Shown here: in pieces, positions 714 through 61,495 of the stretch
How the letters are laid out: each line of letters begins with the position of its first letter
Position numbering within the stretch: position 1 is the stretch's first letter
Source of the DNA: Escherichia phage BP32
Reading direction: 5' to 3' (one strand)
Length of the DNA: 64,000 nucleotides
Sequence record: OR906198.1
Made by a program: the position numbers and the translations under genes
Notes under the pieces: generated by a model
The model's database searches: none
Told to the model about the DNA's origin: nothing
What the model saw: only the letters and a program-made list of their open reading frames with translations

Positions 714-743
714 GTTTACTTTTCCTCTTGACTGTGGTATAAT
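714..743 (+). promoter_or_regulatory. T4-type early promoter (GTTTAC, 17 bp, TATAAT)
   Basis: gtttacttttcctcttgactgtggtataat immediately upstream of regB. Confidence 0.7.
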
Positions 744-1785: not shown

Positions 1786-2119
1786 AATTTTGGTTTTATG
1801 TATAGGATTAATTTCATTTTCTGCGTTAGCAAATACATCATACACTGAAATTAGAGAGTATGTAAACCGTACTGCCGCGGATTATTGTGGGAAAAATAAA
1901 GCATGTCAAGCCGAATTTGCGCAGAAATTAATATATGCATATAAAGATGGAGAAAGAGATAAATCAAGTAGATACAAAAATGATACATTGTTAAAACGAT
2001 ATGCTAAAAAGTGGAATACCTTAGAATGTTCAGTTGCGGAGGAGAAAGATAAAGCCGCCTGTCATTCAATGGTTGACCGTTTGGTAGATTCTTATAATCG
2101 AGGATTGAGTACTAGATGA
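1778..2119 (+). CDS. hypothetical secreted protein (vs position)
   Basis: 113 aa ORF with N-terminal hydrophobic signal-like segment; ATG overlaps upstream stop. Confidence 0.5.
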   Translation: MTKILVLCIGLISFSALANTSYTEIREYVNRTAADYCGKNKACQAEFAQKLIYAYKDGERDKSSRYKNDTLLKRYAKKWNTLECSVAEEKDKAACHSMVDRLVDSYNRGLSTR

Positions 2120-2595
2120 TTGTAAAATATATCAAGGGCGATATTGTCGCCCTATTTCTTCAAGGTAATATTATTGCGCACGGGTGCAATTGTTTTCATA
2201 CAATGGGCTCTGGCGTAGCAGGTCAATTAGCAAGAGCCTATCCCAAAATTTTAGAAATAGATAAAACCACTACTGAGTACGGTTCTCGTGATAAATTAGG
2301 CGATATGTCTATTGTTTTTAAACATAATCCTACGGGATTTGGTATATGCTATAACTTGTATACGCAATACGAACCGGGTCCTAATCTTGATTATGGTGCT
2401 TTAGTAAACTGCATGATAGAATTAAATCTACAGGCAGAGACCCTTTTGTTTAAACCAGTAATTTATATTCCACGCATAGGTTGTGGTATTGCTGGTGGTG
2501 ATTGGGATAAGGTTTCTAAATTAATCGACATGTTTACTCCTGATATTGATTTAATAGTGGTGGATTATGAAAGTACATTACCCGCATCCGTTTGA
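2116..2595 (+). CDS. macrodomain protein (ADP-ribose binding/processing fold)
   Basis: GDI..(10)..IIAHGCNCFHTMGSGVAGQL and later IGCGIAGGDWDKV align by eye to the macrodomain NAAN...GGGV and G-x-G-x-G motifs. Confidence 0.6.
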   Translation: MIVKYIKGDIVALFLQGNIIAHGCNCFHTMGSGVAGQLARAYPKILEIDKTTTEYGSRDKLGDMSIVFKHNPTGFGICYNLYTQYEPGPNLDYGALVNCMIELNLQAETLLFKPVIYIPRIGCGIAGGDWDKVSKLIDMFTPDIDLIVVDYESTLPASV

Positions 2596-2779
2596 TCCTA
2601 AAAACAAAGTGGAAATTATTCGTCAATGGGAACGCATTTGCCGTACTAAATGTCCAATTAATAGTCCTCATGATGTAGATAAAGACTATATAGGAACATT
2701 CGTTGAATATACCTTTATTGATAAGAAAGGTCGTAAACAGCACGTAGAAGAATATTGCTTAAAGGTTACATGGTTATGA
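2567..2779 (+). CDS. hypothetical protein
   Basis: 70 aa ORF overlapping upstream gene end; no recognisable motif. Confidence 0.45.
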   Translation: MKVHYPHPFDPKNKVEIIRQWERICRTKCPINSPHDVDKDYIGTFVEYTFIDKKGRKQHVEEYCLKVTWL

Positions 2780-2982
2780 GCCAAACTAGTATTCTTAAAA
2801 ATGCTCATTGTGAAAAGTGTAAATGGCCGGTTGTTTTTGCTTTATGTAATGATGAAATGGCTTGTGATTTCGATTATTGGTGCTATTGTTCTAATAAAGG
2901 ATGCATCAATCATAAAGGTGAAGGATTTTATTCAGGATTTTATCCTTATCCTGATTTCGTTAAAGAAGGTAAACCAAAATGA
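2770..2982 (+). CDS. small Cys-rich protein, possible metal-binding
   Basis: AAGG RBS 7 nt upstream of ATG 2770; CxxC plus several further Cys in 70 aa. Confidence 0.5.
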   Translation: MVMSQTSILKNAHCEKCKWPVVFALCNDEMACDFDYWCYCSNKGCINHKGEGFYSGFYPYPDFVKEGKPK

Positions 2983-3155
2983 ATGATGATTTAAAATATC
3001 AATTATTACGTGAACTTGATGTTTTGATTGAACTTTCTGCACAAAAAGGATTTATAATTGGATCGGGTCAAAAAGACCCCAACGGTCATTCAATCGTAGC
3101 GGTTATGAATCAGAAACGAGTCATTTTAAAACTTTTGGGGATTGACATACTGTGA
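2979..3155 (+). CDS. hypothetical small protein (58 aa)
   Basis: ATGA start/stop overlap with upstream ORF; below the 60 aa cutoff of the ORF track. Confidence 0.4.
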   Translation: MNDDLKYQLLRELDVLIELSAQKGFIIGSGQKDPNGHSIVAVMNQKRVILKLLGIDIL

Positions 3156-3337
3156 GCCTAAGCAAAGAACAAAAAGATAAATTGTTTGAGCTTATCCATG
3201 AACTTCTAGATGAGCATACAGAAGCAAACACCTTTTATGATGAATACGGCCCGCTATCTCCCGAACAGCAGGAAGAATTTGCTGATCGGTTTGATAAGAA
3301 AGAAAATGAATTAATAGCTTATGTGAATACGCTTTAA
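3152..3337 (+). CDS. hypothetical acidic protein (61 aa), possible GTG start
   Basis: GTGA overlap with upstream stop; highly acidic. Confidence 0.4.
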   Translation: MSLSKEQKDKLFELIHELLDEHTEANTFYDEYGPLSPEQQEEFADRFDKKENELIAYVNTL

Positions 3338-3346
3338 GAAGGTGAT

Positions 3347-3928
3347 ATGGCGAGTTTAATTTTTACTTATGCAGCAATGAATGCTGGAAAATCTGCTTCT
3401 CTTTTGACTGCTGCGCATAATTATAAAGAACGTGGAATGAGTGTATTAGTTCTTAAGCCTGCTATTGATACTCGCGATTCTGTCTGTGAAGTCGTTTCTC
3501 GCATTGGAATTAAGCAGGAAGCGAATATTATTACGGATGATATGGATATTTTTGAGTTTTATAAATGGGCTGAAGCACAAAAAGATATTCATTGCGTATT
3601 TGTAGATGAAGCTCAGTTTTTAAAAACTGAACAGGTGCATCAATTAAGCCGAATTGTCGATACATATAATGTTCCTGTTATGGCTTATGGACTAAGGACT
3701 GATTTCGCTGGAAAATTATTTGAAGGTTCTAAAGAACTTTTGGCGATTGCAGATAAACTTATTGAACTAAAGGCAGTTTGTCATTGTGGTAAAAAAGCGA
3801 TTATGACAGCTCGATTAATGGAAGATGGAACACCAGTTAAAGAAGGTAATCAAATTTGTATTGGTGATGAAATTTATGTTTCTTTGTGTAGAAAACATTG
3901 GAATGAATTAACTAAAAAGCTCGGTTAG
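3347..3928 (+). CDS. tk: thymidine kinase
   Basis: 193 aa; P-loop NAGKSAS; C-terminal Cys cluster; sequence recognised as T4 Tk; AAGGTGA RBS. Confidence 0.97.
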   Translation: MASLIFTYAAMNAGKSASLLTAAHNYKERGMSVLVLKPAIDTRDSVCEVVSRIGIKQEANIITDDMDIFEFYKWAEAQKDIHCVFVDEAQFLKTEQVHQLSRIVDTYNVPVMAYGLRTDFAGKLFEGSKELLAIADKLIELKAVCHCGKKAIMTARLMEDGTPVKEGNQICIGDEIYVSLCRKHWNELTKKLG

Positions 3929-5886: not shown

Positions 5887-6441
5887 GTGAGTGAGTCGAA
5901 GAGAATCAATATGAAACGATTAGTATTAGAAGTTAGTCCGCTTTTTGGTGAATTGGCTATAGAAAAAGTAAATAACATGTATCGTTTGACGCAAGAAGAC
6001 GATATGCTATATTTTACGCCTAGTGAAATCATTCATTTAACCCAAATTGAATATCCTTATACCGATAAAATAGTAAGCATCAATGATGAGCATAAAATTC
6101 ATTTTTGTTCTTTATGCTCGGGATTTAGTATTAAAAGTGAGTCAATATGCTTATCAATTGATAATTGGGATAATTTTATAACTAAGATTAAATATTTTTA
6201 TTATTCTAATGAAAGGAAACATAGTTTAAAATGGTTTAAAAAATGTAATGCTATTATTACTAACACTTGCAATCAGAACGGTGAAACTATTTTAAACGTA
6301 TCAAAATGTTATGAAGATGGAGATGTCTTAACTATTCGTCAATCGGTAAATGATGTTAATGTTGTTGTATTAAACAAAGAAGAAGCTGTTTTATTAAAGA
6401 CTTATCTTGATTCTGTCATTCCAACTATGATTTCAAAGTGA
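5887..6441 (+). CDS. hypothetical protein, paralog A
   Basis: 184 aa; C-terminal segment similar to the next ORF; start uncertain (GTG 5887 or ATG 5911). Confidence 0.55.
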   Translation: MSESKRINMKRLVLEVSPLFGELAIEKVNNMYRLTQEDDMLYFTPSEIIHLTQIEYPYTDKIVSINDEHKIHFCSLCSGFSIKSESICLSIDNWDNFITKIKYFYYSNERKHSLKWFKKCNAIITNTCNQNGETILNVSKCYEDGDVLTIRQSVNDVNVVVLNKEEAVLLKTYLDSVIPTMISK

Positions 6442-6447
6442 GGAAAT

Positions 6448-6969
6448 ATGTTTATTTCAAGTGGAAGTGGTTTAATTCGTGTTGAATTTAAAAATGACAT
6501 CTTCCTTATTCAAGGAGATGATATTATTAAAATGAGTTATGACGAAATCAAGAAAATTTGTCACGCTCTTGAAAGTCATGGAAAGGAAAATGCTACTATC
6601 GATATAGGTGATTTATGGGTAACGCTTTATGAAGTATCCGAAGGATTTAACATTGAAGATGAAAATAACATTTTAGCTATTGATAAAAGGACCGATTTGT
6701 TTGATGTGTTAAAAGTTTATGAACAGTCAAACGGTGGAAGAAAAGCCGTATTGATTTATCAAAAACCGCATTCATGTGGAACTGCTTCAATCATTTCAAA
6801 TATTGAAGATGAAACTGATACCTATATGTGTGTTTTGAAAGCTGGTGGTGACCGTCATCCGGATTTTATTTCTATTCGTCAAAACAATGGAGAAATTTCA
6901 TTATCAAAATCAGAAGCTGAAGCTATGATTAAGTATTTAACAACTGTTACACCTTCAATGAAAGGATAA
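6448..6969 (+). CDS. hypothetical protein, paralog B
   Basis: 173 aa; C-terminus resembles that of the preceding ORF. Confidence 0.55.
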   Translation: MFISSGSGLIRVEFKNDIFLIQGDDIIKMSYDEIKKICHALESHGKENATIDIGDLWVTLYEVSEGFNIEDENNILAIDKRTDLFDVLKVYEQSNGGRKAVLIYQKPHSCGTASIISNIEDETDTYMCVLKAGGDRHPDFISIRQNNGEISLSKSEAEAMIKYLTTVTPSMKG

Positions 6970-40940: not shown

Positions 40941-41183
40941 ATGCATACGGTTTTATTTAAACCTACTCCGTATAATGTTAGGAAAAATACTCAATTCAAA
41001 GCACTTGTTGCAGATACGTGGGAATTGGTGTTAGATATTCCAGCAGAAGAAAGTCCTCCATTTGGTCGAGTGGAATTTATTAAGTTTGCTGTGCGCCCTA
41101 CGAAGCGACAGATTCGTCAATGCAAAAGATACTTTCGTAAAATCGTCAAGTTAGAGAAACAGTTATTGATGCTAGTAAAATAG
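40941..41183 (+). CDS. hypothetical basic protein (80 aa)
   Basis: GAGGGTAA RBS. Confidence 0.5.
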   Translation: MHTVLFKPTPYNVRKNTQFKALVADTWELVLDIPAEESPPFGRVEFIKFAVRPTKRQIRQCKRYFRKIVKLEKQLLMLVK

Positions 41184-41558: not shown

Positions 41559-41852
41559 ATGAAAAAATTTGTTTTTGCTGCAATTTTTGCTTTGGCTTCT
41601 TGTACTGCTCAGCCTGCTATGGCGGGTTATGATAAAGATTTGTGCGAATGGTCTATGACTGCAGATCAGACTGAGGTTGAAACTCAGATTGAAGCAGATA
41701 TTATGAATATCGTTGAGCGTGATCGCCCTGAAATGAAAGCTGAAGTACAAAAACAGCTTAAGTCTGGTGGTGTAATGCAGTATAATTACGTTTTGTATTG
41801 CGATAAAAACTTCAATAATAAAAATATCATCGCTGAAGTGGTAGGTGAATAA
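41559..41852 (+). CDS. sp: periplasmic protein Spackle (inhibits tail lysozyme; superinfection exclusion)
   Basis: 97 aa with signal peptide; sequence and size match my recollection of T4 Sp. Confidence 0.75.
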   Translation: MKKFVFAAIFALASCTAQPAMAGYDKDLCEWSMTADQTEVETQIEADIMNIVERDRPEMKAEVQKQLKSGGVMQYNYVLYCDKNFNNKNIIAEVVGE

Positions 41853-41864
41853 TTAGAGGTTAAT

Positions 41865-42029
41865 ATGAAAACATATAAAGAATTTATCAAAGAAGATATG
41901 GTCGCTGGAGATTCAGGTGGTAATCCTGAAAATATCTCTACTGGAACAACATCAGGTGCTGTAGTAAATAAAGGCCCTGAACAGATTCCTAAAAAGAAAA
42001 AAGAGGAATCTAAAGAAAAAGAAGAGTAA
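41865..42029 (+). CDS. hypothetical small protein (54 aa)
   Basis: AGAGG RBS; Lys/Glu-rich tail. Confidence 0.4.
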   Translation: MKTYKEFIKEDMVAGDSGGNPENISTGTTSGAVVNKGPEQIPKKKKEESKEKEE

Positions 42030-47806: not shown

Positions 47807-48430
47807 ATGATTATTAATCTTGCAGATGTTGAACAGTTATCTATAAAAGCTGAAAGCGTTGATTTTCAATATGATATGTATAAAAAGGTCTGTGAAAAAT
47901 TTACTGACTTTGAACAGTCAGTTCTTTGGCAATGTATGGAAGCCAAAAAGAATGAAGCTCTTCACCGGCAATTGAATAAAATCGTTAAAAAGCATTTAAC
48001 TAAATCACCTTATCAGCTATATCGTGGTATATCAAAATCGACAAAAGAGCTCATTAAAGATTTACAAGTCGGAGAAGTGTTTTCAACGAACAGAGTAGAT
48101 TCATTTACTACTAGTTTGCACACAGCATGTGGTTTTTCTTATGTTGAGTATTTCACTGAAATAATATTTCGCTTAAAAACTGATAAAGCTTTTAATTATT
48201 CTGACCATATCAGCGATATTATACTTTCTTCTCCTAATACTGAGTTTAAGTATACATATGAAGATACTGATGGATTAGATTCAGAACGTACTGATAACTT
48301 AATGATGATTGTGCGTGAACAAGAATGGATGATTCCAATTGGAAAGTATAAAATAACTTCTATTTCAAAAGAAAAATTACACGATTCATTTGGAACATTT
48401 AAAGTGTATGATATTGAGGTAGTTGAATGA
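47807..48430 (+). CDS. modB: ADP-ribosyltransferase (R-S-ExE type)
   Basis: 207 aa from ATG 47807 (GGAGG RBS); motifs R (LYRG), STS-like (FTTSLH), ExE (REQEWMIP). Confidence 0.75.
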   Translation: MIINLADVEQLSIKAESVDFQYDMYKKVCEKFTDFEQSVLWQCMEAKKNEALHRQLNKIVKKHLTKSPYQLYRGISKSTKELIKDLQVGEVFSTNRVDSFTTSLHTACGFSYVEYFTEIIFRLKTDKAFNYSDHISDIILSSPNTEFKYTYEDTDGLDSERTDNLMMIVREQEWMIPIGKYKITSISKEKLHDSFGTFKVYDIEVVE

Positions 48431-49029
48431 AATATTCAGCAATGCAATTAAAAGATTTTAAAATCAAATCAATGGATGCATCGGTGCGTGCTTCTATTCG
48501 TGAAGAATTACTTTCTGAAGGATTTAATTTATCTGAAATTGAACTTTTAATTCATTGTATTACTAATAAGCCAGACGATCATTCTTGGTTAAATGAAATA
48601 ATCAAATCTCGTTTGGTTCCAAACGATAAACCTCTTTGGAGAGGTGTTCCAGTTGAGACTAAGCAGGTGTTAAATCAAGGAATTGATATTATTACATTTG
48701 ATAAAGTAGTATCAGCTTCATATGATAAAAATATAGCTCTACATTTTGCTTCTGGATTAGAATACAACACACAAGTTATTTTTGAATTCAAAGCTCCTAT
48801 GGTATTTAATTTCCAGGAGTATGCTATAAAAGCTCTACGTTGTAAAGAATATAGTCCAAGTTTTAAGTTTCCAGATAGCCATCGCTATCGTAATATGGAA
48901 TTAGTTTCAGATGAACAAGAAGTAATGATACCAGCTGGAAGTGTATTTAGAATTGCGGATAGATATGAGTATAAAAAGTATTCAACATACACTATCTATA
49001 CTCTTGACTTTGAAGGATTTAATCTATAA
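48427..49029 (+). CDS. modA: ADP-ribosyltransferase (R-S-ExE type)
   Basis: 200 aa paralog of the preceding gene; motifs LWRG, SASY, DEQEVMIP. Confidence 0.75.
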   Translation: MKYSAMQLKDFKIKSMDASVRASIREELLSEGFNLSEIELLIHCITNKPDDHSWLNEIIKSRLVPNDKPLWRGVPVETKQVLNQGIDIITFDKVVSASYDKNIALHFASGLEYNTQVIFEFKAPMVFNFQEYAIKALRCKEYSPSFKFPDSHRYRNMELVSDEQEVMIPAGSVFRIADRYEYKKYSTYTIYTLDFEGFNL

Positions 49030-60556: not shown

Positions 60557-61495
60557 ATGTACAATATTAAATGCCTGACCAAAAACGAACAAGCTGAAAT
60601 TGTCAAACTGTATTCAAGTGGTAATTATACCCAGCAGGAATTGGCTGATTGGCAAGGTGTATCGGTTGACACAATCCGTCGTGTTTTGAAAAATGCTGAA
60701 GAAGTTGAGCGCTCCAAAGTTACCATTAGCGGTGACATTACAGTTGAAGTTAAGAGTGATGTAGCTATTGCTCCAGTTGCTAAATCTGACATTATTTGGA
60801 ATGCATCTAAAAAATTCATTTCAATTACTGTTGATGGCGTAACTTATAACGCAACTCCTAATACTCATTCAAACTTCCAGGAAATTCTTAATCTGCTTGT
60901 TGCAGATAAATTGGAAGAAGCGGCACAAAAAATTAATGTTCGTCGCGCTGTTGAAAAATATATTTCCGGTGATGTTCGAATTGAAGGTGGAAGCCTGTTC
61001 TATCAAAATATTGAATTGCGGTCTGGTTTAGTTGATCGTATTCTTGATTCGATGGAAAAAGGTGAAAACTTTGAATTTTATTTTCCGTTCTTGGAAAATC
61101 TGCTGGAAAACCCAAGCCAAAAAGCAGTATCTCGACTCTTTGATTTCTTGGTAGCAAACGATATTGAAATTACAGAAGACGGCTACTTCTATGCTTGGAA
61201 AGTAGTTCGCAGCAATTACTTTGACTGTCACTCAAATACCTTTGATAACAGTCCTGGTAAAGTAGTTAAAATGCCACGTACTCGTGTGAATGACGATGAT
61301 ACACAAACTTGTTCTCGTGGTCTGCATGTGTGTTCTAAATCTTATATTCGTCACTTTGGCAGTTCAACCAGCCGAGTTGTAAAAGTTAAAGTACATCCTC
61401 GCGATGTAGTATCAATTCCAATTGATTACAACGATGCTAAAATGCGTACCTGCCAATACGAAGTAGTTGAAGACGTTACTGAACAATTTAAATAA
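60557..61495 (+). CDS. rIIB: rIIB protein
   Basis: 312 aa immediately downstream of rIIA. Confidence 0.9.
   Translation: MYNIKCLTKNEQAEIVKLYSSGNYTQQELADWQGVSVDTIRRVLKNAEEVERSKVTISGDITVEVKSDVAIAPVAKSDIIWNASKKFISITVDGVTYNATPNTHSNFQEILNLLVADKLEEAAQKINVRRAVEKYISGDVRIEGGSLFYQNIELRSGLVDRILDSMEKGENFEFYFPFLENLLENPSQKAVSRLFDFLVANDIEITEDGYFYAWKVVRSNYFDCHSNTFDNSPGKVVKMPRTRVNDDDTQTCSRGLHVCSKSYIRHFGSSTSRVVKVKVHPRDVVSIPIDYNDAKMRTCQYEVVEDVTEQFK

Follow-up and report, generated by a model that had tools for sequence, protein, structure and literature searches.

What does a small macrodomain gene contribute to a T4-like phage, and on which form of ADP-ribose would its product act? The question is raised by positions 2116-2595 of a DNA stretch from Escherichia phage BP32 (sequence record OR906198.1; "the window" denotes this whole stretch of 64,000 nucleotides), which encode a 159-residue protein. 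The original prediction, made from the sequence alone, assigned this protein to the macrodomains on the basis of two glycine-rich motifs, and proposed that it could reverse ADP-ribosylation by host defence toxins such as DarT or balance the phage's own ADP-ribosyltransferases ModA and ModB. Our analysis supports, with a probability of about 75%, the reading that BP32 carries here an allele of tk.4 (adfM), a gene of T-even phages, and that its product would be a stand-alone macrodomain ADP-ribosylglycohydrolase that acts early as an "orphan antitoxin" on the same substrate as its relatives. The anti-DarT role of the gene is already published for the T4 ortholog, and the macrodomain motif has been annotated since the T4 genome annotation. 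Two observations go beyond the literature that we found: an exchange of alleles between phage genera that is confined to this gene, and a Gln-type active site that sets T-even AdfM apart from PhiKZ AdfM and DarG.

The product of 2116-2595 is a macrodomain, with a match far beyond chance. It matches the Pfam Macro profile (PF01661) with 33.1 bits (E = 5.8e-8; gathering score, 22) over profile positions 2-117 of 118, and PHROG 335 with an E-value of 1.6e-71. Its strongest sequence matches in the PDB are BT1257 (E = 1.6e-10), Poa1p (1.5e-9), and SCO6735 (8.5e-8); matches to the DarG macrodomain of M. tuberculosis (4.8e-5) and to human TARG1 (about 1e-2) are weaker. A structure model predicted by AlphaFold2 from an alignment of 63 sequences is very confident (predicted local distance difference test score (pLDDT) 94.8, predicted template modelling score (pTM) 0.89). 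The best PDB match of this model in Foldseek is TARG1 bound to ADP-ribose or ADP-HPD (E = 1.6e-9, template modelling score (TM) 0.72-0.83). Poa1p, BT1257, and DarG macrodomains (for DarG, E about 3e-7 and TM 0.72-0.77) are the other top matches, and MacroD-type viral and bacterial macrodomains rank lower. The Foldseek probability is 1.00 for ADP-ribose-bound TARG1, Poa1p, and DarG. DSSP assignments on the model place the glycine-rich motifs in strand-to-helix loops (residues 25-32 and 119-129), and in the alignment both loops correspond to those that hold the ligand diphosphate in the homologues. The original call of a macrodomain with a glycine-rich ligand pocket is thus borne out by a profile match above the gathering score and by the position of the motifs on the ligand-pocket loops of the model. 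The T4 record annotates tk.4 as "phosphatase; contains A1pp phosphatase motif", and the GenBank records of several close relatives name the gene "macro domain protein" or "phosphatase". Homologues of tk.4 are found in 2,777 of 50,697 phage records.

Gene order identifies the gene as tk.4. The first 6 kb of the window are 97-98% identical to many Tequatrovirus (T4-like) genomes, and the phage is a Tequatrovirus. The genes of the locus are listed here with their protein identities to T4 and to the Dhakavirus phage dhaeg.

771-1232: regB, 100% identical to T4 and 58.3% to dhaeg
1240-1785: vs.1, 181 residues, 99.4% identical to T4 and 68.0% to dhaeg
1778-2119: vs, 98.2% identical to T4 and 46.0% to dhaeg
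2116..2595, plus strand: tk.4/adfM coding sequence, 159 residues, a single macrodomain and no other domain (open reading frame listing, Pfam, PHROG, AlphaFold2, Foldseek), 58.1% identical to T4 (E = 1e-70, over 155 residues) and 93.1% to dhaeg
2567-2779: tk.3, 92.9% identical to T4 and 74.3% to dhaeg
3347-3928: tk, 99.5% identical to T4 and 70.9% to dhaeg

The tk.4 reading frame begins with ATG and carries both motifs, GDI...IIAHGCNCFHTMGSGVAGQL and IGCGIAGGDWDKV. The start codon shares bases with the vs stop codon (ATGA, 2116-2119), and at the 3' end 29 nt are shared with tk.3, which starts at 2567. The T4 annotation shows the same arrangement of vs and tk.4, with vs ending at 61386 and tk.4 starting at 61389. 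The gene lies between vs and tk.3, in the T4 order regB-vs.1-vs-tk.4-tk.3...tk, and is therefore the ortholog of T4 tk.4 by position. The tk gene lies downstream, as had been predicted.

The T4 ortholog has a known phenotype. When a T4 transposon library was screened by HIDEN-SEQ on E. coli carrying DarTG2, tk.4 was the single significant gene; a clean tk.4 knockout turned DarTG2-sensitive, and the gene was renamed adfM, for anti-DarT factor Macrodomain (bioRxiv preprint, November 2025, 10.1101/2025.11.20.689424). In vitro, PhiKZ gp104, which was independently named AdfM as well, strips a TNTC oligonucleotide of the ADP-ribose added by DarT2, a reaction that the mutation N23A lowers; in vivo, it protects against DarTG2 (PMC13309987, Cell Rep 2026). 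Of the two roles originally proposed, reversal of DarT-type DNA ADP-ribosylation therefore has genetic backing, since the T4 ortholog is needed on a DarTG2 host. From homology to these proteins, we infer the activity, substrate, phenotype, and catalytic details of the BP32 allele.

The other proposed role, a balance of the phage's own ModA and ModB, did not find support. Both transferases are indeed encoded at 47807-49029, where the original prediction had placed them:

47807-48430: modB, 96.1% identical to T4 ModB, PHROG 832 "RNA polymerase ADP-ribosylase"
48427-49029: modA, 97.5% identical to T4 ModA, PHROG 832 "RNA polymerase ADP-ribosylase"

The two genes overlap by 4 nt, with modB first in transcription order, and the paralogues are about 27-30% identical. 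An enzyme that reverses or tempers the ADP-ribosylation of host proteins by Alt, ModA, and ModB would find two of these transferases encoded in the same window, and macrodomains can act on proteins: SCO6735 and TARG1 remove Glu/Asp-linked PARP1 automodification (PMC9411070). In T4, however, tk.4 insertions were depleted specifically when DarTG2 was present, giving no sign of a housekeeping role, and in the window tk.4 lies about 45 kb from modA and modB with no transferase co-localised. The ADP-ribose that Alt, ModA, and ModB attach is linked to arginine. ARH/DraG-type enzymes cleave this linkage, and we know of no TARG1/DarG-class macrodomain that does. We consider a role on the phage's own protein modifications extremely unlikely.

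We next turn to the active site, where the T-even family departs from DarG and TARG1. Residues were scored for invariance in the 63-member family alignment (roughly 40-80% identity), and the active site was aligned with TARG1 (sequence identical to PDB 2lgr), two DarG macrodomains, PhiKZ gp104, and BT1257. Three segments of the site are listed here:

2179..2220, plus strand: first active-site loop, residues 22-35, HGCNCFHTMGSGVA (family and homologue alignments)
2353..2367, plus strand: NLYTQ, residues 80-84, with invariant Q84 (alignment with homologues)
2470..2505, plus strand: second glycine-rich (phosphate-binding) loop, residues 119-130, PRIGCGIAGGDW (HMMER alignment)

The family-invariant residues are G8, H22, G23, N25, C26, G33, A35, D49, N80, Y82, Q84, P119, G122, G124, and W130. 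In the model, the first loop runs from the strand at residues 19-24 to the helix at 33-41, and the second from the strand at 115-118 to the helix at 130-140. N25 aligns with Asn27 of SCO6735 and Asn23 of PhiKZ AdfM, and H22 with His23 of Poa1p and His32 of TARG1. NLYTQ aligns with NFPTK in DarG and PhiKZ AdfM, YLITK in TARG1, and NMIGQ in BT1257, an alignment that puts Gln84 at the position of the catalytic lysines of DarG (Lys80) and TARG1 (Lys84). HMMER aligns the second loop with "PRIGCGLAGGTW" of SCO6735 and "PRIGCGLDRLQW" of TARG1, so that G122 and G124 align with Gly126 and Gly128 of SCO6735 and A126 occupies the position of TARG1 Asp125.

These features resemble those of SCO6735, which has no catalytic Lys or Asp and carries Gln85 as the equivalent of K80/K84 (PMC9411070). 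SCO6735 removes the thymidine-linked ADP-ribose that DarT attaches to DNA, and E. coli is rescued by it from DarT; the Q85A variant has no activity and N27S almost none, Asn27 being the residue that locks Gln85 (PMC9411070). The mechanism proposed for it is water-initiated, with the backbone carbonyl of Val25 positioning the water (PMC9411070). We found that the SCO6735-type pattern, a Gln in the catalytic-Lys position together with N25, G122, and G124, is present and invariant in the phage family. By alignment register, G23 would be the counterpart of SCO6735 Val25.

The lack of the canonical DarG/TARG1 lysine could also mean that the protein does not catalyse at all, but is an ADP-ribose reader or sponge, or blocks DarT2 through binding, the mode of action proposed for AdfA and AdfB (PMC11481870). 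We judge this very unlikely. A Gln at the Lys position supports catalysis and is essential in SCO6735 (PMC9411070), and the full set of catalytic-site residues is invariant in a family diverged to about 40% identity, as is typical of enzymes. The protein also has no counterpart of the C-terminal DarT-binding domain of DarG.

For an ADP-ribosylglycohydrolase, we propose the following mechanism. The host DarTG2 system would release DarT2, which would put ADP-ribose on thymidine of single-stranded phage DNA (at TNTC motifs) and stop phage DNA replication. The tk.4 enzyme, probably expressed early from the regB-vs.1-vs-tk.4 cluster, would hold the ADP-ribose between its two glycine-rich loops and cleave the N-glycosidic bond to thymine, so that the DNA could be replicated again. 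We predict chemistry of the SCO6735 type and not of the DarG type, with no catalytic Lys: Gln84, fixed by Asn25, would orient the distal ribose, and cleavage would start from a water placed by the backbone. Among the relatives, hydrolysis of thymidine-linked ADP-ribose is established both for a Gln-type enzyme (SCO6735) and for Lys-type ones (DarG, TARG1, and PhiKZ AdfM).

Several points weigh against this reading. The T4 evidence is genetic only, and the preprint describes enzymatic ADP-ribose removal from DNA as "likely" (10.1101/2025.11.20.689424). The BP32 allele is 58% identical to the tested T4 protein and linked to it by homology alone. At the active site, the catalytic Lys of DarG and TARG1 is replaced by Q84 and the TARG1 Asp125 position is an Ala, and the long "mobile loop" of the SCO6735/BT1257 subclass is absent from the protein. 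The second-closest solved relative by sequence is Poa1p, an ADP-ribose-1''-phosphate (Appr1p) phosphatase, and comparative genomics has argued that phage Macro domains mostly target soluble, low-molecular-weight ADP-ribose derivatives (Iyer et al, PMC9503650).

The last two of these points would fit a different substrate, with the protein acting on soluble ADP-ribose derivatives and not on DNA adducts, as an Appr1p phosphatase, an O-acetyl-ADP-ribose deacetylase, or a hydrolase of immune signals derived from ADP-ribose. Poa1p is among the top structural matches as well as second by sequence, and H22 aligns with its His23 and T29, by a conservative change, with its Ser30, two residues that are mutated in deposited Poa1p structures (PDB titles, alignments). 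The "phosphatase; A1pp motif" annotation of T4 tk.4 points the same way. Against this, macrodomains often show Appr1p phosphatase activity in vitro although this is not their biological role, and to our knowledge T4 RNA repair (Pnk/Rnl) makes no Appr1p. We noticed no Tpt1/KptA-type partner near tk.4, although no search was aimed at one. DarTG2, the system to which the one known phenotype of the T4 ortholog is specific, modifies DNA, and we regard a soluble substrate as improbable.

If the gene is thus best read as a DNA ADP-ribosylglycohydrolase, which version of it does BP32 carry? The protein identities listed above show a sharp break at tk.4: Tk.4 is dhaeg-like, and its flanks are 93-100% T4-like, which indicates that a patch of ~450 bp has been exchanged between genera.

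2155..2610, approximate boundaries: recombinant patch (sliding-window identity, protein identities, pairwise DNA alignment)

Within a T4-like backbone, the DNA of this patch is about 85-100% identical to dhaeg and about 40-80% to T4, and the patch essentially coincides with the body of tk.4. Just upstream of the tk.3 ATG (around 2555-2595), the window has a 13-nt deletion relative to T4, as a result of which tk.4 runs 29 nt into tk.3 in another frame and ends in the tail ...DYESTLPASV. The dhaeg protein has the same length of 159 residues and the same C-terminal tail. In the model, the tail has low confidence (last block pLDDT 69). At the other end, at 2135-2153, a scan flagged as terminator-like on both strands an inverted repeat rich in G+C, AGGGCGATATTGTCGCCCT, with a T-rich stretch after it. 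It lies inside codons 7-13 of tk.4, where the gene is still T4-like and the divergent patch is about to begin, and may mark a recombination junction or form a structure in RNA or DNA.

Several allele classes circulate in the phage collection. About 312 records carry the BP32 class (at least 90% identity) and about 224 the T4 class, and a further 159 records belong to a class 80-90% identical to T4 Tk.4, which includes that of the Mosigvirus AlbertHofmann (84.5%). Another Dhakavirus has yet another tk.4 variant, 74% identical to the BP32 protein. The active-site residues are identical across the allele classes compared. A counter-defence gene in an arms race would be expected to show such exchange, which by itself is not evidence that the alleles differ in specificity.

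The exchange nevertheless bears on the possibility that the protein has a broader or different nucleic-acid specificity, for example for RNA bases (such as uracil-linked ADP-ribose) or for adducts of other defence ADP-ribosyltransferases, CmdTAC-like mRNA modifiers among them, with allele classes that may differ in target. Strongly diverged alleles swapped between genera would fit such a role, as in an arms race, and ADP-ribose linked to uracil in RNA is among the adducts that TARG1, DarG, and SCO6735 remove (PMC13036486). A defence with an mRNA ADP-ribosyltransferase acts against T-even phages (PMC11618068). However, the sameness of the active-site residues in both allele classes argues against changed chemistry, and the CmdTAC paper names macrodomains only in its reference list. 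We find a different specificity unlikely; removal of uracil-linked ADP-ribose as an extra activity of the Tk.4 protein, by analogy with these enzymes, is plausible.

Taken together, the allele exchange and the Gln-type site allow a broader proposal, which we put forward as doubtful: that the tk.4/adfM slot is an exchangeable counter-defence cassette, in which deeply diverged alleles (58% identity) with unlike specificities pass between T-even genera as patches of ~450 bp, and that T-even AdfM was recruited independently, as a third mechanistic subgroup of thymidine-ADP-ribose hydrolases. If so, alleles may differ in the DarT2 variants or the modified bases (T in DNA, U in RNA, or others) that they neutralise. 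T-even AdfM would then be not a captured DarG but a Gln-type, SCO6735-like enzyme with a short mobile loop, distinct from the Lys-type AdfM of PhiKZ.

The position of the gene is consistent with early expression. Two features read from the sequence bear on this:

2100..2119, plus strand: tk.4 translation start context, with GAGGA at 2100-2104, GAG at 2107-2109, and ATG at 2116
715..743, plus strand: possible early promoter of the sigma-70 type, upstream of regB, TTTACT-17-TATAAT with TG (consensus match alone)

The ATGA overlap suggests translational coupling of tk.4 to vs within an early polycistronic transcript, and the candidate promoter could drive regB-vs.1-vs-tk.4. Because the total of promoter-like sites in a scan of the region was not above the shuffled expectation, this promoter is weak evidence. 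A place in the early regB-tk cluster and coupling to vs fit a factor that is needed before replication.

Other features of the surroundings concern neighbouring genes. Two minus-strand open reading frames (2534-2743 and 2686-2808) were treated as spurious, as they are antisense to tk.4-tk.3 and tk.3 has strong family support. Vs.1 has an N-terminal signal-like hydrophobic segment and weak PHROG matches to a lytic tail protein (transglycosylase-like; E = 7.8e-5); T4 Vs.1 is annotated as hypothetical. From about 2780, DNA identity to T4 falls to 20-45%, while that to dhaeg stays at 65-80%. The interval between tk.3 and tk holds an extra Cys-rich open reading frame of 75 residues (2755-2982; PHROG 2306) that is lacking at this position in T4, and a Tk.2 homolog (3152-3337) 52% identical to T4 Tk.2; no Tk.1 homolog was detected in this interval (2755-3337). 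We also looked for adfA (T4 61.2), which acts against DarTG1: a tblastn search with T4 gp61.2 gave nothing in the window at E <= 1. In that region, 61.1 (41865-42026) comes almost immediately after an sp homolog (41559-41849), and the interval from 61.4 (40941-41168) to sp holds about 390 bp of additional sequence, against about 60 bp in T4. The gene adfN presumably lies beyond the window, judging from T4 map positions.

More broadly, tk.4 is an example of the stand-alone "antitoxin-like" enzymes with which large lytic phages undo the chemical damage caused by bacterial toxin-antitoxin defences, here ADP-ribose on DNA. This orphan-antitoxin principle has already been described with T4 tk.4/adfM and PhiKZ gp104, and the window adds no new principle. 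It does show that the name AdfM covers both Gln-type (T-even) and Lys-type (PhiKZ) sites, which matters when mutants, inhibitors, or specificity are extrapolated from one to the other. Natural T4-like phages with sharply different tk.4 alleles in near-identical backbones also provide ready allele pairs for asking whether the allele determines host range among DarTG2 strains, a question relevant to the choice of T4-like phages for therapy.

Among known systems, T4 Tk.4/AdfM is the natural reference. The two proteins occupy the same slot between vs and tk.3, have the same single-macrodomain architecture (155 residues in T4, 159 here), and have all family-invariant residues in common, including H22, N25, Q84, G122, and G124. 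They differ in the second glycine-rich loop, which reads GCGIAGGDW here and GAGIGKGNW in T4, and in lineage: the BP32 allele is Dhakavirus-like, whereas the anti-DarTG2 phenotype comes from the T4 allele only. Within the same phage group, AdfN (T4 30.3, a NADAR protein) and AdfA (T4 61.2) are likewise stand-alone DarT-neutralising factors, but they have unrelated folds and target DarTG1, with guanosine-linked ADP-ribose, and not DarTG2. Of the two, AdfN neutralises this guanosine-modifying system as an enzymatic orphan antitoxin (PMC11825919).

Poa1p, the source of the "phosphatase" label, shows strong N-terminal similarity to the BP32 protein (IIAHGCNCFHTMGSGVAGQLA, compared with the Poa1p stretch that includes His23). 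This similarity is concentrated in residues 3-79 and weak in the C-terminal half, and the Poa1p substrate is a soluble by-product of tRNA splicing without a known link to phage defence. TARG1/OARD1 is the best structural match and has the PRIGCG loop and first-loop His in common with the phage protein, and it also cleaves thymidine-linked and uracil-linked ADP-ribose (uracil: PMC13036486). At about 20% identity, however, its Lys84/Asp125 dyad is replaced by Gln84/Ala126 and its Ser35 by Asn25.

SCO6735 and BT1257, which are Gln-type ALC1-like macrodomains, match the phage family in active-site pattern: a Gln in place of the catalytic Lys, an Asn that supports it, and a GxG in the phosphate loop. 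BT1257 is the closest solved relative by sequence; identity in this comparison is only about 28%. Unlike these proteins, the phage family lacks their extended "mobile loop", five residues longer than in DarG and TARG1 and with DNA-binding lysines: the extra IYKDSK segment that follows the Gln in BT1257 is absent in all aligned phage proteins. The phage family is therefore not simply a part of the SCO6735/BT1257 subclass, and the catalytic analogy with SCO6735 is incomplete. SCO6735 and BT1257 are, moreover, stand-alone chromosomal genes of bacteria and not phage counter-defence genes, and SCO6735 is DNA-damage-inducible. Another bacterial homolog is encoded on the Pelagimonas phthalicica chromosome (6001-6459 of the sequence examined), 40% identical to the BP32 protein and stand-alone among unrelated housekeeping-type genes, which indicates that Gln-type short-loop macrodomains exist as orphan genes in bacteria too. 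As regards an origin as a captured antitoxin, no DarT-like or phage genes were found near this homolog, the single case examined.

Two matches in actinophages touch on the pairing of macrodomains with toxins. A tblastn match of T4 Tk.4 in a Microbacterium phage lies under a feature annotated "ADP-ribosyltransferase", and could represent a Macro-ART (ADP-ribosyltransferase) pair or fusion. In Streptomyces phage Moab, tblastn finds a match 31.7% identical to the BP32 protein; this phage typifies a sirtuin-Macro toxin-antitoxin pair described by Iyer et al (PMC9503650).

The comparison with DarG (T. aquaticus, M. tuberculosis) and PhiKZ gp104 bears on the AdfM name. All are ALC1-like macrodomains and have the same proposed task on DarT2-made thymidine ADP-ribose, and PhiKZ gp104 is, like Tk.4, a stand-alone phage macrodomain. 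DarG, over its macrodomain part, is the sole PADLOC match and the best NCBIfam match of the BP32 protein. We nonetheless rejected membership in the DarG family: the protein scores 27.8 bits against a cut-off of 250 for NCBIfam NF048014, and its 27.7 bits with the PADLOC DarG model cover only profile positions 3-144 of 329. The position of TaqDarG Lys80 (FPTK) holds the invariant Gln84, and the gene encodes a 159-residue macrodomain only, without the C-terminal DarT-binding domain, with vs and tk.3 and not darT as neighbours. The same PADLOC model gives 132.9 bits for PhiKZ gp104 and 36.0 for T4 Tk.4, and PhiKZ gp104 has the FPTK catalytic Lys of DarG where the T-even family has YTQ. These scores and residues place the two AdfM proteins in different lineages, a difference that we did not find stated in the AdfM literature examined. 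From their sequences, then, T-even and PhiKZ AdfM are different lineages of the ALC1-like class that probably use different catalytic residues.

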